In this document: positions 50,873-58,898 of the stretch, in pieces
Position numbering within the stretch: position 1 is the stretch's first letter
How the letters are laid out: each line of letters opens with the position of its first letter
Source of the DNA: an uncultured Gemmatimonadales bacterium
Lineage (GTDB): Bacteria; Gemmatimonadota; Gemmatimonadetes; Gemmatimonadales; GWC2-71-9
Direction of reading: 5' to 3'
Length of the DNA: 64,000 nt
Assembly (NCBI GenBank): GCA_963748035.1
Contig: CAVVHO010000003.1
Location: 646,500-710,499 of the forward strand
Made by a program: the position numbers and the translations under genes
The notes under the pieces: model-generated
Database searches by the model: none
What the model was told of the DNA's origin: nothing
What the model saw: the letters and a program-made list of their open reading frames with translations, nothing else

Positions 50873-53125
50873 TCAGAAGGTCGTGCTGATGCGCATCAGG
50901 AATGTACGACCCGCCCCTGGATTCTCGGCGTTCGTCTTGATCCGGCTCAGGAAGTTTGCGTACGCCTTGTCGAAGAGATTTCGCACGGCGAAGTCCACAT
51001 GGGGAGCATGAGGCCCGCCACCGAGCCCGAAACCCGTGCCGGCGTTGATCAGGGTGTAGGGCTCCGACTGATAGCCGCGGCCACCGAACGCGCCTGCGAA
51101 GAAGGCTGCCTCCGCTGGATCCAAACGCGTCTGCCTGGTATTGCTCTCTCCGCCCAGCGAGAGATAAGGATCGCGGACTAGTCCGTCGCGCGAAGCCTCA
51201 AGCCGTACCTCATAGGTCGCCCTGAAAGGCGGCATGGACGGGAGCGGATCGTCGTTGCTGGTGTTGGTGCCGCGGACGTAGTCCGCGGTGCCTTGGAAGT
51301 GCAGCCAGCGGGTGGGATGAAGTTGTCCCGCAACCTCGAAGCCCTGCAACCTCGCATCACCCTGGGTGACGTCATAGATCTCGAAGCCGGAGCCCGGATC
51401 GGTCGTTCCTGTGGGGACGGTGTAGATGTAATCGTTGATCCAGTTGACGAACGTACCGACTTCGAATGCGAGATTGGTCGTCTGAACCCGGATTGCCAGA
51501 TCACCGTTGAGAGATTTTTCGGTGCGGAGATTGGGGTTGCCCCGCTCGAACGCCACCGTGCCTTCATGTACGCCATTGGCGAAGAGATCGAAACTCGAGG
51601 GGGCCCGAAAGCCGCGTCCTACGTTCAGCACAAGTGCGGCGGGCTCCGCGAACTTGTACAGAATGCCCAGGTTCCCGGTAACGGAATTCCAACTCTGCGC
51701 GTCGGGGACCCCAGCGATGGTGGTATCTTCCAGTGCGAGGTGGCGGTAGTCGTACCGCGCCCCGACCGAGAGGTCCCAGCGCCCGCCGTGCAGCTGCTCG
51801 AATCCGAAGACCGCCAGGCCGCTTGTCTGGCTGTTGGGAATCAGGGTCTCGTTGCCGAATTTCTCGAATTCGGTTCGCATCCCGCTTACACCGAAGACTC
51901 CCGACAGCGACCCAATCGGCGCTTGGTGAAGGTGGGCGTCCAACGTGTAGTTGTGTGACAGGAGTCCGAGCGATACGTCGCTGGTGGTGTCATCTTCGAA
52001 CTCGCGCCGTCGATTACGCTCGAAGCCTGCACTCACCTCAAGCCGTGATCCCCCGACCGGGAAGAGGCCATCGAGCCGTGCCCGTGTCGCTGCGATCCGT
52101 TGCGTGGGCGTAGCCGCCGGATCCTCATCGGTGAGTGAAATCCGCTCATCCCGTTGGGCGAACGAGGCGGCGAGGTTTCCCCAGTCGCCTCGATCGCCTA
52201 CAGCGAAGCTTCCGCCGAGGGCGCGGTTGCCGCTGTTCCAGAGGGTGTAATCCGGAGTTTTGACATTGCCGGCCGAGCGGCCGCTCACAGTTGCGCGGAA
52301 GCCGAGACCACCGCTCGCACCGTTGACGAGGAGAGCGCCGACTGGCTCTCGCGCGTTGCTTGAATACGAAGCGGTTGCCTCGCCGTCGATCGTCGACTTC
52401 CCCGGCTCCGTAGAAGGCAACGCCCGTGGAATGACGTTCACGACGCCACCGAGCGCGTCGGATCCGTACAGAACACTGGCGGGTCCGCGAATCACCTCGA
52501 TGCGATCAGCGAGTGCGGTCTCGATGTTGGGTCCGTGCTCGTCGCCCCACTGCTGGGTCTCCATCCGCTGACCGTTGTCTAGCACCAAGACACGATTTGA
52601 AGTCAATCCGCGAATCACCGGCTTTCCAATCCCCTGACCGGTACTCAGGCTGTGGACGCCGGCGACCTGATTGAGGGTCTCGCCCAAGCTGGGGGCCTGC
52701 GCACCGCTCAGGTCGGCACCTTGAATGACGGCAGTAGGCTGGGGGGAGACAAGCGGATCAATGGTCGAGGTGGTGGCCGTGACTTGGATCGGGGGCAGCT
52801 CGACCAGCGATGGCTTGAGGGTGAAATCCTGGTTCAGGTCCTGATTCGCAAGGCGAAGAGCTCGGACCTGCGGGGCATAGCCGATGGCGGAAACGGAAAA
52901 GGTAAACACCCCTGCGGGCAGGCCTGGCACAGTGTAACGACCCTCGACGTCGGTCAGGACGACACGCCCGGCTTCGACGACCGCGATGCGCGCGGCGAAG
53001 AGAGGCGTGCCGTCGGTTGAGGTAACGCGGCCGGCGACGGTTGCGCCCGGAAGGGACGCGGCAGGTTGAAGCGGTGTGGAGAAGGCTGTGAGCGCGAGCA
53101 ACGCGCTTGTGAGACTCGCTAGCAT
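50873..53125 (-). CDS. TonB-dependent receptor, ZnuD-like
   Basis: N-terminal carboxypeptidase-like domain; plug KPVIRGL...QQWGDEHG...RIEVIRGPASVLYGS; DLFANGVHEGT..FERGNPNL; terminal Phe; SD GAGGAG. Confidence 0.9.
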   Translation of the reverse strand: MLASLTSALLALTAFSTPLQPAASLPGATVAGRVTSTDGTPLFAARIAVVEAGRVVLTDVEGRYTVPGLPAGVFTFSVSAIGYAPQVRALRLANQDLNQDFTLKPSLVELPPIQVTATTSTIDPLVSPQPTAVIQGADLSGAQAPSLGETLNQVAGVHSLSTGQGIGKPVIRGLTSNRVLVLDNGQRMETQQWGDEHGPNIETALADRIEVIRGPASVLYGSDALGGVVNVIPRALPSTEPGKSTIDGEATASYSSNAREPVGALLVNGASGGLGFRATVSGRSAGNVKTPDYTLWNSGNRALGGSFAVGDRGDWGNLAASFAQRDERISLTDEDPAATPTQRIAATRARLDGLFPVGGSRLEVSAGFERNRRREFEDDTTSDVSLGLLSHNYTLDAHLHQAPIGSLSGVFGVSGMRTEFEKFGNETLIPNSQTSGLAVFGFEQLHGGRWDLSVGARYDYRHLALEDTTIAGVPDAQSWNSVTGNLGILYKFAEPAALVLNVGRGFRAPSSFDLFANGVHEGTVAFERGNPNLRTEKSLNGDLAIRVQTTNLAFEVGTFVNWINDYIYTVPTGTTDPGSGFEIYDVTQGDARLQGFEVAGQLHPTRWLHFQGTADYVRGTNTSNDDPLPSMPPFRATYEVRLEASRDGLVRDPYLSLGGESNTRQTRLDPAEAAFFAGAFGGRGYQSEPYTLINAGTGFGLGGGPHAPHVDFAVRNLFDKAYANFLSRIKTNAENPGAGRTFLMRISTTF

Positions 53126-53205
53126 GGCTGCTCCTCAGAACTGGCGTTCGCCTCCGGCACATGCGTTTCCGGAGGTAGGCTCGGGATCTTGAATAGATTC
53201 GCAAG

Positions 53206-53544
53206 TCAGCCGAACGAGGGAGGAGCGCGAGACCGGTAGGAGGGCTGGTGACGGACTGAGGGATGCAGTTGGGGCGTCGGGAATACGGATTTCAGCCCGT
53301 AGGCCGGATGGAAGGCCGTTTCGGTGGCGGCGGCTTCAGTTGCACGCAGATCAGCGAGCAATCGGTTGAGCGGGCAGTGACCACCGTGGTCGCTGGAACC
53401 ACCCCGGCTCTCAAAGTGGACACGCTCCTCCTGGGGTTTGCCGCGGTGCTCGAGGAGAAGGTCGGCCGCTGGCAGCCCAAAGTTCCCCGCGACGTAGGCG
53501 AACGCGAGAACGAGGATTCGGGGTCGAGCTGCCATGTCGTGCAT
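53206..53544 (-). CDS. RAPP-terminated leader protein (DUF2946/CruR-like uORF) 1
   Basis: 112 aa: hydrophobic anchor, GNFGLPAADLLLEH, HGGHCPL, C-terminal SRAPPSFG; starts 4 nt after the permease stop and ends 80 nt before the TonB receptor. Confidence 0.75.
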   Translation of the reverse strand: MHDMAARPRILVLAFAYVAGNFGLPAADLLLEHRGKPQEERVHFESRGGSSDHGGHCPLNRLLADLRATEAAATETAFHPAYGLKSVFPTPQLHPSVRHQPSYRSRAPPSFG

Positions 53545-53547
53545 ATG

Positions 53548-54393
53548 CTAAGTACCGGGCACGCCTGATTTGAGCACCTTGCGACCGAGGAACGCGAGGA
53601 GGAGCAAAAGCCCGAAGACGCAAACCTCCACCGGTCCGGTGGGCAGGTCCTTCCAGAATGACACGCCGATGCCCAGTGCCGAGGCTAAGACGCCGGCGAC
53701 CCATGCGATGATTGCGAGGAGGCCGCGACGCCGAGTGAACTGAAACGCGATGGCTGCCGGGATCACCAGGAACGAGAAGACGAGCAGCACGCCGACGATT
53801 GGCACTGAGAAGGTGATCACGACGCCGAAGCTCAGATAGAACCAGAAATCCCACCAGCGGAGTTTCCAGCCGTGCGCGGCGGCCTGCTCCGGCTCGAACG
53901 AAATGGTAAGGAATTTCCGTCTGAGAACCCAATGAAACAGGCCCACGATCGTATACACGGCGGCGAGACGACCGATCGCGGGCCAGCCCACCCATAGCAG
54001 GCTTCCCACCAGAATGTCCTTGATGGCCTCCCCACCTCTCGGTGATCGATCGGCGACCAGGATGGCGGCGGCCGAGGCGACTACATACACGATGCCAATG
54101 ATGGCCTCCTGCGGCACCCTGCCCTGACCGTGCTCCGAACGTGTCGCGGCGAAAACCGCAGCGCCGGCGGTTGTGAACCCGAAGGCGTAGACGAAGGACA
54201 TCGCGGAACCGGAGTCGGCGCCAACGAGGATCGCGACCGTGGAGCCGAGCGCGGCGACCTGGGCGAGCGCCAGGTCCACGAAGATGACTTCTCGCGCCAG
54301 GACGTGAAGTCCGAGGTAGGAATGGACTGCGACGATCACCATGCAGGCTACCAGCGGCGCCAGCCAGAGGCTGTGGATCAGCTGAGCAAGCAT
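53548..54393 (-). CDS. Metal ABC transporter permease (ABC-3, ZnuB-like)
   Basis: HSYLGLHVLAREVIFVDLALAQVAALG, QEAIIGIVY, GSLLWV, VGVLLVFSFLVIPA; TGATG coupling to the SBP gene. Confidence 0.9.
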   Translation of the reverse strand: MLAQLIHSLWLAPLVACMVIVAVHSYLGLHVLAREVIFVDLALAQVAALGSTVAILVGADSGSAMSFVYAFGFTTAGAAVFAATRSEHGQGRVPQEAIIGIVYVVASAAAILVADRSPRGGEAIKDILVGSLLWVGWPAIGRLAAVYTIVGLFHWVLRRKFLTISFEPEQAAAHGWKLRWWDFWFYLSFGVVITFSVPIVGVLLVFSFLVIPAAIAFQFTRRRGLLAIIAWVAGVLASALGIGVSFWKDLPTGPVEVCVFGLLLLLAFLGRKVLKSGVPGT

Positions 54394-55433
54394 CAGGAAG
54401 CTCCCTCGCGGAACCCGGCTACGAGGCCATTGATCCAGGCGTTCATCAGATCGAAGTAGGTCTCCACGCCCGGGGCGCCATGGGTATTCTCGGGAACGAT
54501 GACCGCGTGAGCGCCGGTCTTCTCCGCAACCTGCTGAATCTGGTTGTGGTCGAAATAGTTCGAGGCGAAGAGCAGCGGGATCTTCCGCTCCTTCATGAGG
54601 GCGATCACCTCTTCGACATGTCTGGGGGTAGGCGGAATCCCCGGCTTGGCCTCGATGTAAGTGGCGCAGGTGACCTGAAAACGATGGCTGAAGTAGGCCC
54701 ACTCCTTGTGGTAACAGGCGATTTCCTTCCCCCGGAATGTCTCGCTGGTCTTGAGCCAACCGCCGAGTCGGTCGAGCAACGGCTTGCCCTGATATTTCGT
54801 AGCGGCCAGGAAGGAGGAAAGCTTGTCGCTCTTGAGGAGATCGAGGGCGGTGGCCGGCGTCAGGATCCCGACCAGTTCGGCGCCCATGGTGGCTTCGAGG
54901 ATTCGCTTCTCGAAATCCTGTTCCCGGCCGGCGAAAAAAGCCGCCTCACTTGGGGCCACGCGCTGCAGGCCGGTGAGAATATTCCGGGCGATGATGATGG
55001 CGTTCAGTGGGTCGGTATGAATGTGCGGGTTGCCATCGGCATGAATGTCACCCTCGCTGCGGTTCAGCGATGTCGGCACCTCCAGGAGCGTGATGCCGGT
55101 GTACGCGGTGACATACCCGGGGCCACCCTCTGACACCTTGCGGTTGTTGGCACGATCGAGGAGGGCAGGGACCCAGAGCTCGAGATCAAGGCCGGTGGTG
55201 ACGAACAGATCCGCGTCCCGGAGCACAGCGACGAAGCTGGGCTTGGGCTGAACAAAATGCGGATCCTCATCCCCCTGGGCGATTGAGGTCACGGTCCCCC
55301 GGTCGCCGGCGATTTCGCGCGCGATGGCGCCGTAGGTGGTGAGGCTGGTAACGATCTTGAGCGGCGGCTCGGCGACTCGGCGGCTCGGCGGCTCAGGGGA
55401 GAGCGTCGCAAGGATCAGGGCCAGGAGCAACAT
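54393..55433 (-). CDS. Metal ABC substrate-binding protein (cluster A-I, ZnuA-like)
   Basis: DPHFVQPKPS, GDIHADGNPH, YHKEWAYF, EAKPGIPPT. Confidence 0.9.
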   Translation of the reverse strand: MLLLALILATLSPEPPSRRVAEPPLKIVTSLTTYGAIAREIAGDRGTVTSIAQGDEDPHFVQPKPSFVAVLRDADLFVTTGLDLELWVPALLDRANNRKVSEGGPGYVTAYTGITLLEVPTSLNRSEGDIHADGNPHIHTDPLNAIIIARNILTGLQRVAPSEAAFFAGREQDFEKRILEATMGAELVGILTPATALDLLKSDKLSSFLAATKYQGKPLLDRLGGWLKTSETFRGKEIACYHKEWAYFSHRFQVTCATYIEAKPGIPPTPRHVEEVIALMKERKIPLLFASNYFDHNQIQQVAEKTGAHAVIVPENTHGAPGVETYFDLMNAWINGLVAGFREGAS

Positions 55434-55446
55434 TCTGTCTACCTTT

Positions 55447-55474
55447 CGGCTAACGGCTAACGGCTAACGGCTTA
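55447..55474. repeat. Heptamer tandem repeat (CGGCTAA)x3 + CGGCTTA
   Basis: Read directly in the spacer between the OMP and SBP genes. Confidence 0.9.
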
Positions 55475-55480
55475 CGATCC

Positions 55481-56833
55481 TCAGTATGTCTCATGCTTGT
55501 GCGGACCCATGGCGAATACGGCCTGCAGCAGCAACTGGTCTTGATTGCCTGCGACGCTGTCGTGGTGATGCTGGCCCTCTAGGCGCAGGAAGACGAATTC
55601 GCTCTCCCACCATGTGATCGTCGGTGAGATCTGCCATTCCGTCGAAAACGGGCCTCTGGCGGCCTCGACGTAGTCGTACCGACCACCGAGGATCCAGCGC
55701 TGGCTCAGGCGGGCGGTCAGGTCAACGAAGGCGCCATAGCGCGTTGTCTGGACTCCGAGTTCATGTGCCCGCAACCGGTACCCCTCCATCCGCAAGGTGA
55801 CTTCCTTGCGGGTGCCCGCATTAGGCGGGCGCCAGGTTAACCGGAGGTCGGCGCCGAGCACTCGTCCGCGGACGCTATCCGCGTTGTCACCGCCCAGCGC
55901 GGTGAAGCCGATCTGGCCATAGGTGCTGCGGGAGAGTTGCCAGAAGTTCTGCACCCGCCCGAGCAGGGTGCCGTGGTCACCGGTACCGTAGAGCGGCTGG
56001 CTCTCGGCGGTGGTTCCCTGCAACCAGATCTCGTGGGTGCCACCACCGATTGACAGCGGGAGCGTGGTGTAAAGCGAAACCCCGGCGCCCGACAACCCCT
56101 CGTCTCCGAGGAATCGGCGGTAGACCAGAGGGTATTCGGACTCCGGAAGAGCGTGCAGATGCCAGCGATTAAGGTCGCCGATCTGTTCACGGAAGAGCCC
56201 GACGTCGGCCCGGAGGCGACCCGGAAGCCCGGTCCAGTACAAGTACCCCTCCTCGACGCCGACAGCGTCGTGCTCAAAGGTCAGGACCACCTTGGCATTG
56301 GAGTAAGGGTCCAGCGTGGACTGGAGTGCGACTTCGAACTCGCGTGCATCACCCCGCAGACCATCGTGCCGCTGCCCGCCAAGCCGGATGTCGCCGGTCG
56401 CGCTGATCTCCGGATTCATGGCTGAGCCGCTCCGTTGGCGGCCCACGAACTTGGTTTCACCGCTGGGGGTCGTGTCCGGCGGCGCCCCCGGTGGCGCGCC
56501 CGTCGCGGCGGCGGCCGCTGCCCTGAGGGCCGCTAGGTCATCGCCACCGGTAGTGTCGGTCGGCTGCGCCACGGCTTGCCGACACCGTTGCGCGATCAGC
56601 CGTTCGAGGCGCGCGCTCAAATCGGCAATGGCCCGATGCAATGAATCCGCACCGGCGGGGATGCTCAGCGCCGGACCGGTGGGGCAGGAGCCGCGCTCCA
56701 GCGAATCCAGTCGAGTTGTCAGTCGTTCAAGCAGGCGCTGGTTGGTGTTCGCGGGCTGCTGAGCGTGCAGGGGGACGGCCGTCAGGCCTGTCAGCCCTAT
56801 GAGGGATGTCCAGATGGCATTGTTGTGCCGCAT
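55481..56833 (-). CDS. Outer-membrane beta-barrel protein with N-terminal coiled coil and His-rich C-terminus
   Basis: Signal peptide; MNPEISATGD, VEEGY, GLFREQIGDLNRWHLHALP; C-terminal HHHDS and GPHKHETY; first gene before the SBP and permease. Confidence 0.75.
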   Translation of the reverse strand: MRHNNAIWTSLIGLTGLTAVPLHAQQPANTNQRLLERLTTRLDSLERGSCPTGPALSIPAGADSLHRAIADLSARLERLIAQRCRQAVAQPTDTTGGDDLAALRAAAAAATGAPPGAPPDTTPSGETKFVGRQRSGSAMNPEISATGDIRLGGQRHDGLRGDAREFEVALQSTLDPYSNAKVVLTFEHDAVGVEEGYLYWTGLPGRLRADVGLFREQIGDLNRWHLHALPESEYPLVYRRFLGDEGLSGAGVSLYTTLPLSIGGGTHEIWLQGTTAESQPLYGTGDHGTLLGRVQNFWQLSRSTYGQIGFTALGGDNADSVRGRVLGADLRLTWRPPNAGTRKEVTLRMEGYRLRAHELGVQTTRYGAFVDLTARLSQRWILGGRYDYVEAARGPFSTEWQISPTITWWESEFVFLRLEGQHHHDSVAGNQDQLLLQAVFAMGPHKHETY

Positions 56834-56901
56834 TTCAAATGACCCGTATCGCCCCGGAGGCCCGGTGGCGGAAAGGGGAAAGCGAGTTGTGTGAGCGCCA
56901 G

Positions 56902-57243
56902 TTAGGCGCGGAAGGGAGGAGCGCGGGAGGGGGGAAGAGTGGAGTCAGACCGTCCGGTCTGAGATTCGACCGCAACGATTGGAAGCACTGAGTCCGGCGG
57001 CGTGACTTGCGCGGAGACGGCTTGGGAGACCAGGCACCCATCCGTCACGGCTGGCTGCTGAAGCGGGCACACCTGGGCGTGGGTAGGCTTCCCGCCCAGG
57101 TCGACGAGGGTCCGCTCCGAAACAGCTGCCCCGGGCTGGCCGTGGAACACCAGACTGTCGAACAACGGCAGGCCGAAGCCCCCGACCAACAGGGCGAGCA
57201 GCAGGGTAAGGGCCCGTACGCGGACGATCAGGGACCGGCTCAT
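56902..57243 (-). CDS. RAPP-terminated leader protein (DUF2946/CruR-like uORF) 2
   Basis: 113 aa from ATG 57243: hydrophobic anchor, GGFGLPLFDSLVFH, HAQVCPL, C-terminal SRAPPFRA; ends 68 nt before the OMP gene. Confidence 0.75.
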   Translation of the reverse strand: MSRSLIVRVRALTLLLALLVGGFGLPLFDSLVFHGQPGAAVSERTLVDLGGKPTHAQVCPLQQPAVTDGCLVSQAVSAQVTPPDSVLPIVAVESQTGRSDSTLPPSRAPPFRA

Positions 57244-57296: not shown

Positions 57297-58898
57297 TCAG
57301 GGCCGGGCCTCGAGGATCGGGTTTACCCTCGGATACTCCGCGCTGATGCCGGGGCGCCGGCTGGGACCTTCGGCGGGTAAAATGAACCAGAAGGTCGCAC
57401 CGGTGCCGTAAATGGACTCGCATCCGATCGTTCCACCATGCATTTCGACGAATCTCCGAGCGAGCGCGAGCCCCAAGCCCGTCCCCTGCTGCTGCCGGCT
57501 GGCCGAACTGTCCACCTGGCTGAACTCGTGAAACAGTTTCGGCATGTCCTCCTGCTTTATCCCAATTCCGCTGTCTTGCACCGAGACCCAGAGGGCATCG
57601 CGCGAGACGAGGCGGACCGCCTCGCCGGGTGAGTCGACCGGAAGCGGAAGGGGTGCCCGTGTCGCGATAGCCGAGACGATCATCTGACCGCTTTGCGGAG
57701 TGAACTTGGAGGCGTTGGAAAGCAGGTTGAACAGGATTTGCCTTATCCGCGTGCCATCAGCCAGCACCGGGAGCGGTTGGGTACCGATCTCGAGCTTGCA
57801 CTCCTGCTGCTTGGAGGAGCGGAGCGGTGCGGTATCGGTGACGGCGCCAAGAATGAGCTCACGCAGGTCACTGGGCGCGAGGATGAGCGTCATCCGGCCG
57901 GCCTCGATCTTGGAGAGGTCCAACACGCTGTTGATTAGGCCGAGCAGGTGCTGACCGTTGCGGAGGATGGAGTCGAGGAACTCGCGCTGGGTCTCATTGA
58001 CCTGTCCGAGTTCCTCCGTGAGCAGCAAGTCGGAGAAGCCGTTGATGGCGTTGAGCGGAGTGCGGAGCTCATGCGACATATTGGCGAGGAATTGGCTCTT
58101 GAGCTCTGTGGCCCGCTGCAGCTCGCGATTCTTCGCGGCCAGGACCTCTTCTTTGCGACGGCTCTCCTCCAGCACATGGGCGCGGTCGAGCCCGACGACG
58201 ACCTGGTCGCCCAAGGTCTGGAGCAAATGCACATCAGCATCGGTGAACGGCTGTCCATCACGGCGATTGACCACCGCGAGAACGCCAATGACCAGGCCGG
58301 CCGAACGGAGCGGGACGGCGACAATGGTCTTGAGCGGCAGGGCCGATAAGGGATAATTCCGCGGGTCCGCCGCCATGTCCGGAGAGGTGAGGGCGGTCTC
58401 ATTCGTCACTACCCAGCCTAACAGGGAATTGTCCACCGGGAGCAGTTGGTGGCGGGTTGCCGCGATAGGCCCCGCCCCGGCCACAATTCGGACGAACCGA
58501 CCCTCCTCGACGACGAAACCGATGGCCGCGCCATCGCTGGCCAGCAGGTCTGCTGCTGCCTCCGTCACGACTTGCAGCACCTGGTCCAGGTTCTCCCCCG
58601 AAACCATGGCTTCGGCGACCCTCCGGAGCCAGTTCAGCTCGCGGTCGCGCAGTTGAACGCGGGACTCGGCGTCTCGCTGCCTCTCCTCACGCCGCAACCG
58701 GTCGCGACTGACCAGCCCGAGGCCGATGCCCATGAGGGTGATCGCCCCCGCCAGCAGCCCCCAGCCGAACGACACCCCACGGCCAACAAGCCACGCTCCC
58801 GCGACGCCCGCGGGCAGCGCCGTCAGGAGCAGTGGAGTCGCCCGGGGGATGATGGCCCGGGAAGATCGCACTGCTCTGGGGGGCGTAGGAGGCGTCAT
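57297..58898 (-). CDS. Membrane GAF-sensor histidine kinase (no receiver domain)
   Basis: Two TMs, GAF, FLANMSHELRTPL, N box NLLSNASKF, DSGIG, GTGLGL. Confidence 0.93.
   Translation of the reverse strand: MTPPTPPRAVRSSRAIIPRATPLLLTALPAGVAGAWLVGRGVSFGWGLLAGAITLMGIGLGLVSRDRLRREERQRDAESRVQLRDRELNWLRRVAEAMVSGENLDQVLQVVTEAAADLLASDGAAIGFVVEEGRFVRIVAGAGPIAATRHQLLPVDNSLLGWVVTNETALTSPDMAADPRNYPLSALPLKTIVAVPLRSAGLVIGVLAVVNRRDGQPFTDADVHLLQTLGDQVVVGLDRAHVLEESRRKEEVLAAKNRELQRATELKSQFLANMSHELRTPLNAINGFSDLLLTEELGQVNETQREFLDSILRNGQHLLGLINSVLDLSKIEAGRMTLILAPSDLRELILGAVTDTAPLRSSKQQECKLEIGTQPLPVLADGTRIRQILFNLLSNASKFTPQSGQMIVSAIATRAPLPLPVDSPGEAVRLVSRDALWVSVQDSGIGIKQEDMPKLFHEFSQVDSSASRQQQGTGLGLALARRFVEMHGGTIGCESIYGTGATFWFILPAEGPSRRPGISAEYPRVNPILEARP

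Follow-up and report, generated by a model that had tools for sequence, protein, structure and literature searches.

A leader gene between permease and receptor

The window analysed here, a 64,000-nucleotide (nt) stretch of DNA from an uncultured Gemmatimonadales bacterium (contig CAVVHO010000003.1, positions 646,500 to 710,499), carries on its minus strand a string of genes in the order GAF-HisKA kinase, uORF1, OMP450, ZnuA, ABC-3 permease, uORF2 and TonB receptor. Our subject is uORF2, a small internal leader open reading frame (ORF) that precedes the gene for the TonB-dependent receptor and ends with the tetrapeptide Arg-Ala-Pro-Pro (RAPP) a few residues before its stop codon; an arrangement that recalls CruR, the copper-responsive upstream ORF (uORF) found ahead of the TonB-dependent transporter BfrG (PMC9426467). 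The feature is real, is confirmed on the minus strand, and consists of the following parts:

53206..53544, minus strand: internal leader ORF uORF2, 112 amino acids (aa), ending SRAPPSFG and stop (ORF list, conserved synteny, family profile E 1.2e-28 in its own genome)
53464..53523, minus strand: predicted N-terminal membrane anchor, ~residues 8-27, after R7 and R9 (sequence; AlphaFold2 helix)
53368..53463, minus strand: putative metal-sensor segment, D28, H33, GG48-49, H53-x3-C57-P-L59 (conservation in 137 sequences)
53230..53367, minus strand: variable linker, residues 60-105 (Cys-to-Arg length kept in homologues; unstructured in AlphaFold2)
53218..53229, minus strand: putative RAPP arrest codons CGC GCT CCT CCC (sequence; P108 as P-site and P109 as A-site residue are expected from the geometry in PMC10951233)

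Working along the gene from its start, the permease stop codon TAG (53550-53548) is followed by a single CAT triplet and then by the uORF2 ATG at 53544, leaving a gap of 3 nt. An earlier, sequence-only reading of this locus had put the start 4 nt after the permease stop, which is right as to the adjoining position and not as to the gap, four being the offset. The stop codon TGA (53208-53206) is separated from the receptor ATG at 53125 by a spacer of 80 nt; here the same reading was exact, the 112-aa length, the SRAPPSFG ending, the 80-nt distance and the position in the middle of the gene string, directly before the TonB receptor, all agreeing with the ORF list and the sequence. On reading the sequence we see no Shine–Dalgarno element belonging to uORF2 itself and, because of this and the 3-nt gap, its translation is probably coupled to that of the permease.

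The encoded protein (MHDMAARPRILVLAFAYVAGNFGLPAADLLLEHRGKPQEERVHFESRGGSSDHGGHCPLNRLLADLRATEAAATETAFHPAYGLKSVFPTPQLHPSVRHQPSYRSRAPPSFG) opens with R7 and R9, followed by a hydrophobic stretch of ~20 residues—an N-terminus that looks like an uncleaved anchor, the topology being a prediction from sequence. An AlphaFold2 model built from a 137-sequence alignment places a helix over residues 4-33 (predicted local distance difference test score, pLDDT, 85-95) and short helices over 53-69, with no secondary structure after residue 69 (mean pLDDT 76.5); the first of these helices agrees with the membrane anchor that had been proposed. H33, H43, H53, H56 and C57, all listed previously, are each found in their places when checked in the sequence. 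The C-terminus runs S105-R106-A107-P108-P109-S-F-G, with three residues after RAPP and the codon for P108 at 53223-53221. A 101-aa antisense ORF (53263-53568, plus strand) overlaps uORF2; we take it to be a by-product of high GC.

A family with a fixed distance between cysteine and RAPP

A word-indexed search returned three relatives only (77%, 55% and 50% identity), all in the same synteny, 2-4 nt after the ABC-3 gene and 76-80 nt ahead of a 750-aa receptor, and a search with a five-sequence alignment found one related locus, in a Gemmatimonadales metagenome-assembled genome. A family profile made from five sequences and searched against 1.84 billion representatives (E<=0.001) yielded 182 homologue clusters, nearly all of 108-125 aa, and it is from 152 sequences retrieved that the motif statistics below are drawn. 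Because homologues share synteny, length, motif and a C-terminal RAPP, uORF2 is more than chance, and a reading of it as a chance ORF is rejected.

The motif R[AG]PP is present in 143/152 homologues (135 RAPP, 8 RGPP), and in 140 of these 143 it lies 1-5 residues from the C-terminus. H-x3-C occurs in 142 of the 143 motif-bearing sequences and CxxC in none of the 152, bearing out the suggestion that one Cys and conserved His stand in place of CxxC. The distance from Cys to Arg is 47-48 residues in 137/142 homologues, and in uORF2 C57 and R106 are 48 apart. Across the 137-sequence alignment D28, C57, R106, P108 and P109 are invariant, with H33, H53 and A107 conserved at 90% or above; of the residues listed earlier, therefore, H33, H53 and C57 are conserved, as is D28 in addition, and H43 and H56 are not. 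From residue 60 to RAPP the sequence varies and the length is constant, for which reason we believe that the linker (residues 60-105) is a ruler that sets the distance from Cys to RAPP. The alignment contains no conserved stretch of 7-10 columns.

A few members deviate. The RAPP tail is missing at L043:6618-7040 in genome G108 and at L039:4183-4497 / L051:5131-5445 in G146, the proteins ending ...FKNSPSHCSSVA and ...HPQRGPQKPVHR; decay, a frameshift or an error of assembly may explain them. Several leader matches in genera g15 and g10 (e.g. G138:C4:260608-260937) are flagged as having one TGA inside; this is probably an artefact and not recoding, because only 1-2 residues follow RAPP and the alignment overruns the true stop.

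This pattern of conservation bears on what the product is for. Were it a stable small membrane-anchored metal-binding protein—a chaperone for the receptor or binding protein, for example—with a RAPP tail of no regulatory consequence, one would understand the conserved Asp/His/His/Cys beside a membrane anchor and the location of the gene amongst transport genes. We nevertheless find this improbable: residues 60-105 are conserved in length and not in sequence and are predicted to be unstructured, an invariant RAPP keeps its distance to the Cys on one side and to the stop codon on the other, the motif is counter-selected in ordinary proteins (PMC12992588), and the products of CruR and CutF are undetected in cells. 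A substrate that monitors Sec/YidC in the manner of ApdA, ApdP or SecM, sensing export capacity and not metal, would likewise combine RAPP with an N-terminal localisation signal; with metal transporters downstream in place of sec/yidC, and invariant His/Cys ligands at a fixed distance from RAPP, we regard this as very improbable indeed.

The closest described family is DUF2946 (PF11162). Its Pfam profile matches uORF2 with 17.3 bits (E 0.008), short of the gathering threshold of 23.7 bits; the match is colinear, uORF2 aa 43-109 aligning with profile positions 50-117 of 117. This is the score that the sequence-only reading had asked for. uORF1 gives no DUF2946 match, only 11/137 family members reach E<=0.01, and none of the 61 genomes belonging to the window's taxonomic family has an over-threshold match. 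Neither uORF1 nor uORF2 matches an NCBIfam family, and the JGI annotation of one homologue is 'hypothetical protein'; pipelines do leave the leader unnamed, as had been anticipated.

With DUF2946/CruR, uORF2 shares a RAPP a few residues before the stop and the spacing from Cys to RAPP; it departs from them in having a single Cys, within H53-G-G-H-C57, in place of CxxC. In CruR the CxxC occupies residues 90-93 and RAPP residues 139-142, three residues before the end, giving 48 residues from the first Cys to the Arg and 45 from the second (PMC9426467). L058 and L059, deeper Gemmatimonadota leaders that come from outside the window's family but within its order, carry H-x2/3-C-x2-C with first-Cys spacings of 47/49 and second-Cys spacings of 44/46, and it is because of this first-Cys match that we equate C57 with the first Cys of CxxC. 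To judge by sequence, the window's lineage has lost the second Cys and fixed Asp/His/His; we read the family as a derived sister branch of DUF2946, and not as a member by Pfam criteria. The RAPP position and the CruR-equal spacing support the earlier proposal of a CruR-like, membrane-anchored RAPP leader, an interpretation that is partly supported overall, and strongly so in anatomy and homology.

A second leader and the surrounding operon

A profile search of the window's own genome (4.2 Mb, 10 contigs) finds exactly two copies of the family, uORF2 and a paralogue, uORF1, which heads the gene string:

57297-58898, minus strand: GAF-HisKA kinase
56902..57243, minus strand: operon-heading paralogous leader uORF1, 113 aa, MSRSLIV...SRAPPFRA and stop (family profile E 1.4e-26)
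55481..56833, minus strand: 450-aa outer-membrane-like protein (OMP450), no family assigned
54393..55433, minus strand: ZnuA-family substrate-binding protein (Pfam ZnuA E 1.1e-46; best NCBIfam match AztC, sub-threshold)
53548..54393, minus strand: ABC-3 metal permease, 281 aa (Pfam ABC-3 E 7.6e-30)
50873..53125, minus strand: TonB-dependent receptor, 750 aa, last gene on the strand and proposed gated gene (Pfam CarboxypepD_reg, Plug and TonB_dep_Rec_b-barrel)

uORF1 shares with uORF2 the predicted anchor and a G-x-F-G-L-P-x2-D-x-L-x2-H block, followed by H55-x3-C59-P-L; its RAPP codons (56914-56925) are the same CGC GCT CCT CCC, and its SRAPP lies three residues from the stop, the ORF ending 68 nt ahead of the 450-aa gene. 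The uORF1 homologue in locus L001 ends SRAPPVIA. OMP450 itself matches no Pfam or NCBIfam family, yet in relatives it constantly accompanies ZnuA/ABC-3. The stop codon of ZnuA overlaps the start codon of the permease (TGATG), and the operon has no ATPase gene to go with the OMP450-ZnuA-ABC-3 unit (53548-56833, minus strand). For the receptor, the best NCBIfam matches, all sub-threshold, are a heme receptor and ZnuD; beyond it lie PCuAC (on the other strand), CopC, CopD, two SCO1 genes and Caa3_CtaG.

Leaders as movable units ahead of transport modules

Looking across the phylum, we find the family in 98/301 Gemmatimonadota genomes and 39/127 genera. Of the 98 carriers, 22 have two to four copies; at least 13 genomes have theirs on one strand of a single contig, with 2.7-6.2 kb between them. 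We fetched 20 multi-leader regions, in which genes were called crudely by GC content at third codon positions (GC3) and similarity to the window proteins. The order leader, OMP450, ZnuA, ABC3, leader, receptor recurs in the window and at least six other loci; in G150 the modules are reversed (leader, receptor, leader, OMP450, ZnuA, ABC3), G108 has three leaders in one gene string, and G191, G069 and G235 show leader, OEP, CusB-like, ACR_tran, leader and then either OMP450-ZnuA-ABC3 or a receptor (Pfam-confirmed). A single leader ahead of a receptor is a further arrangement. Locus L040 (G191:C1:370000-389999) reads leader, OEP, CusB-like HlyD_D23, ACR_tran (resistance-nodulation-division, RND), leader, OMP450, ZnuA, ABC-3, a 71-aa ORF and an HMA P-type ATPase, so placing efflux and apparent uptake modules on one strand with a RAPP leader between them.

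For 53 unique leaders the next gene is a TonB receptor in 26 cases, OMP450 in 16 and another gene in 11, the last including CusCBA-like RND pumps. On a tree of the family the downstream-class label changes 15 times, compared with 22.8 in shuffles (0/200 shuffles as low). Within the window's genus, leaders of uORF1 type and of uORF2 type fall into two distinct clades, both supported and each tied to its own module; outside it the tree shows local leader duplications, as in G150.

DUF2946 genes have been described by Roy et al. as 'systematically in first positions' of operons, a rule that fails in the Gemmatimonadota family. uORF1 does head its string; uORF2 lies 3 nt behind the permease, as it does in orthologous loci. 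Roy et al.'s rule speaks for a view in which uORF2 heads a transcription unit of its own, from a promoter inside the permease gene, and is not truly mid-operon; the second leader of G150, ~65 nt behind a receptor gene, would suit such a view. This we think unlikely. At least 16 leaders start no more than 40 nt after a long same-strand ORF, a count that is a lower bound because the heuristic missed the window itself, and several start at -4 to +2 nt; spacers of 2-4 nt, or overlaps and abutments (-4, -1, 0, 1, 2 nt), to the preceding gene are seen in many lineages, and uORF2 lacks a Shine–Dalgarno of its own. A scan between the genes found no sigma-70-like promoter or intrinsic terminator, which is weak evidence in a phylum whose promoters are poorly known. 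A search of Rfam across the operon gave no match at E<=1, and a search of sequencing runs for the locus brought up metagenomic DNA runs only, which shared at most 16% of the words.

Codon choice, pairing and C-rich stretches in the mRNA

At the nucleotide level, four features of the uORF2 3′ region and spacer concern us:

53220..53226, minus strand: GCUCCUC within the Ala-Pro-Pro codons, exact complement of the receptor Shine–Dalgarno
53130..53136, minus strand: TonB receptor Shine–Dalgarno GAGGAGC, 5 nt before the ATG (sequence)
53151..53175, minus strand: intergenic hairpin CCUCCGG-N11-CCGGAGG (fold, -13 kcal/mol)
53195..53314, minus strand: C-rich, G-poor (rut-like) stretch over the uORF2 3′ end (C minus G up to 0.33 per 78-nt window)

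The RAPP codons are unusual. Comparing 53 leaders with the background of the same loci, Ala is GCT in 42% at RAPP (background 7%); the first Pro is CCT in 60% (7%) and CCC in 2% (34-39%), the second Pro is CCC in 60% (34-39%) and Arg is CGA in 32% (9%). In the window the minimum free energy (MFE) fold of 53232-53117 closes with a helix between the RAPP codons and the Shine–Dalgarno (-41 kcal/mol, z -1.85), seven nucleotides being paired in the native sequence versus two after recoding. Over the family, at least four RAPP-codon nucleotides pair with the Shine–Dalgarno region in the MFE folds of 26/44 leaders versus 15/44 after synonymous recoding; the RAPP window pairs with its own Shine–Dalgarno region at -12.5 kcal/mol versus -11.35 kcal/mol with those of other leaders (permutation p ~0.001), and ranks in the top 10% of leader windows as a Shine–Dalgarno partner in 13/44 (p 2.6e-4). 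We take the effect to be real but modest.

A GC hairpin is present in nearly every spacer of the family (-10 to -29 kcal/mol), with 15-28 nt left between its end and the start codon; the sequence lacks conservation, and z falls below -1.64 in 43% of spacers. In the window and most relatives no U-tract follows, and it is therefore not an intrinsic terminator.

Along the 6.6-kb operon mRNA, C exceeds G most strongly in two stretches over the 3′ ends of the leaders, where C minus G rises to 0.44 in uORF1 and to 0.33 in uORF2, set against an operon mean of 0.04 (standard deviation 0.09). The stronger stretch, over the uORF1 3′ end and spacer (56849-56990, minus strand), reaches C 0.55 and G 0.12 in 78 nt; the OMP450 gene downstream of it has no recognisable Shine–Dalgarno. 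The genome encodes Rho (main match C4:376245-376466), with a second, weaker Rho_RNA_bind match at G000:C3:301776-301991 on the plus strand (55.7 bits, in a 386-aa frame).

These stretches invite a simpler output for the same sensor and arrest, one that is purely of the CruR type: the stall would block Rho, release would lead to Rho termination within the 80-nt spacer, and the complementarity between RAPP codons and Shine–Dalgarno would be incidental. Each leader has its C>G stretch precisely over the 3′ end, in a genome that encodes Rho, the rut site of CruR has been mapped to such a C-rich stretch (PMC9426467), the position-conserved GC hairpin could make polymerase pause in the spacer, and uORF1, without a Shine–Dalgarno helix, has the stronger C>G stretch of the two. 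This account is possible; the spacers of receptor-class leaders, however, are 74-84 nt versus 162 nt in CruR, it offers no explanation of the rare-codon bias that creates GCUCCUCC, and the C-richness is due in part to a coding sequence rich in Pro, Ser and His. Saying this, the Rho and Shine–Dalgarno mechanisms can coexist.

A model for gating of the receptor

Building on the anatomy, conservation, placement before transport modules, codon bias and complementarity that we observe, we consider it likely, though far from certain, that uORF2 is a translated, cis-acting nascent-chain metal sensor of the CruR/CutF type, with RAPP arrest, that gates the receptor. Ribosomes terminating on the permease would re-initiate 3 nt downstream on uORF2; with translation coupled in this way, the checkpoint would act on ribosomes already engaged on the operon mRNA. 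The N-terminal anchor would insert into the membrane and, on arrival at R106-A107-P108, when P108 occupies the P site and P109 the A site, the ribosome would stall in forming the next peptide bond. C57 would at that point be ~48 residues away from the peptidyl-transferase centre, so that the D28/H33/H53/C57 cluster should be just out of the tunnel, at the membrane/translocon. Metal bound to the cluster would alter the pull on the chain and hence how long the stall lasts, an idea already put forward for CruR and CutF.

The stalled ribosome would mask the GCUCCUC anti-Shine–Dalgarno codons and shield the C-rich stretch from Rho; because it hides both, the receptor ribosome-binding site would be free and Rho excluded. 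A long stall would thus leave the receptor expressed and a short one would turn it off, release and termination 9 nt further on allowing the helix to form and Rho to load. The arrest itself, and the weight that falls on Shine–Dalgarno unmasking versus Rho, we infer from these features. For an uptake receptor the expected polarity would be that bound metal relieves the stall and switches the receptor off, as in CruR.

Several observations weigh against this model, or parts of it. The polarity is unreadable from homology, because the family precedes both efflux (RND) and uptake modules, and CruR and CutF answer copper in opposite senses; the score of uORF2 against DUF2946 is, as described, sub-threshold. 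As regards the pairing, the significance of the window fold is modest, 5/200 shuffles folding as well, and the folded construct begins at RAPP, which favours end-to-end helices; the gain for own pairs averages only ~1 kcal/mol; and the notion that, in each leader, no window would pair better with the Shine–Dalgarno than that of RAPP is rejected, RAPP ranking first in 1/47. uORF1, in addition, has no clear Shine–Dalgarno downstream and its fold no such helix, and the rare R-A-P codons could serve the arrest itself and not mRNA pairing.

The metal would be copper or zinc. The flanking PCuAC, CopCD, SCO1 and CtaG genes point to copper; the sub-threshold matches of the receptor to ZnuD and of the binding protein to AztC point to zinc; the Asp/His/His/Cys ligand set suits either.

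Extending the model from one leader to the whole string is more tentative. We entertain multi-checkpoint metal operons in which two to three serial RAPP sensors on a transcript would each gate one transport module, differing in threshold, specificity and even polarity, with the arrest codons as the anti-Shine–Dalgarno strand. Were this true, one mRNA could carry a CusCBA-like efflux system together with an uptake receptor or ABC importer, the two being expressed reciprocally.

Significance

CruR and CutF exemplify a recently recognised coupling of metal level to expression without a protein regulator, and their leaders have so far been described as operon-heading uORFs, mainly from Proteobacteria. 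Metal-sensing RAPP/proline leaders are already published, as are mixed Cys/His clusters upstream of OEP/RND, TonB and PCuAC genes and the enrichment of RAPP ORFs before TonB receptors; our literature search found no publication joining Gemmatimonadota to RAPP arrest. What is new is a Gemmatimonadota branch with H-x3-C, which neither Pfam nor NCBIfam recognises; the position of its leaders inside operons and in series; the rare-codon signature at RAPP; and, if our model is right, the fusion of arrest site with anti-Shine–Dalgarno in the window's clade.

A large branch with another ligand set (Asp/His/His-x3-Cys) escapes current domain models, and its putative sensor is a portable cassette placed before single modules inside operons, up to three times per gene string. 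Selection at the nucleotide level on the arrest codons suggests that arrest site and mRNA switch are fused. Leader and spacer together make a compact system of ~420 nt in which to study metal tuning of the RAPP stall, the universality of the 48-residue ruler and the setting of polarity; and, as a warning for annotation, 'hypothetical' ORFs of ~110 aa between transporter genes can be regulators.

Comparison with known arrest systems

The nearest parallel is CruR (Bordetella pertussis Bp2923). Both are small proteins, exported or anchored (in uORF2 by prediction), with RAPP three residues from the C-terminus and 48 residues from the (first) Cys to the Arg; both have a TonB receptor (BfrG for CruR) directly downstream, a C-rich, G-poor mRNA at the leader 3′ end and copper-handling genes nearby. 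They differ in that uORF2 carries H-x3-C and an invariant Asp/His set where CruR has CxxC, scores below the Pfam threshold, and is followed by a spacer of 80 nt as opposed to 162 nt. uORF2 also lies behind a permease gene, in company with a second paralogous leader, whereas CruR is at an operon head; its RAPP is written in rare codons and that of B. pertussis in frequent ones, and the two come from Gemmatimonadota and Proteobacteria respectively.

CutF, from the Rhodobacter capsulatus cutFOG operon (bioRxiv 10.1101/2022.11.11.516240; 10.1101/2025.02.05.636593), senses metal as a nascent exported chain and stalls at C-terminal prolines, much as our model has it for uORF2; the stall is proposed to open a structure shielding the downstream Shine–Dalgarno, and clusters of CutF-like proteins with mixed Cys/His motifs precede OEP/RND, TonB and PCuAC genes. 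uORF2 has three of the features by which Ozturk et al. describe CutF-like proteins, being under 150 aa, with PP no more than 15 residues from its C-terminus (108-109) and a same-strand downstream gene within 1000 nt. CutF, on the other hand, has CxxxC, a PPP-type motif needing EF-P and a cleavable Sec signal; its anti-Shine–Dalgarno lies in the spacer and that of uORF2 in the arrest codons; and copper lengthens the CutF stall, turning a detoxifying oxidase on. Analyses of CutF have been confined to its place upstream in a gene pair and describe no internal or serial leaders.

The arrest peptides ApdA, ApdP and ApcA, and the census of small RAPP/RGPP ORFs (PMC7897499, PMC10951233, PMC12992588), supply a third comparison. 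Like them, uORF2 is a small protein with a predicted localisation signal and, close to its C-terminus, the RAPP core, as in the class of small secreted or membrane proteins ending in RAPP/RGPP; the census found RAPP small ORFs enriched upstream of TonB receptors and copper genes (PMC12992588). The characterised members regulate sec/yidC and sense export, whereas the targets of uORF2 would be metal transporters, and the uORF2 family has in addition a conserved His/His/Cys cluster at a fixed distance from RAPP. Finally, the proposed output resembles that of SecM, MifM and VemP, where a stalled ribosome keeps an inhibitory helix open and exposes the downstream ribosome-binding site; the arrest sequences there are different ones, whilst in uORF2, which lies inside an operon, the arrest codons would themselves supply the inhibitory strand.

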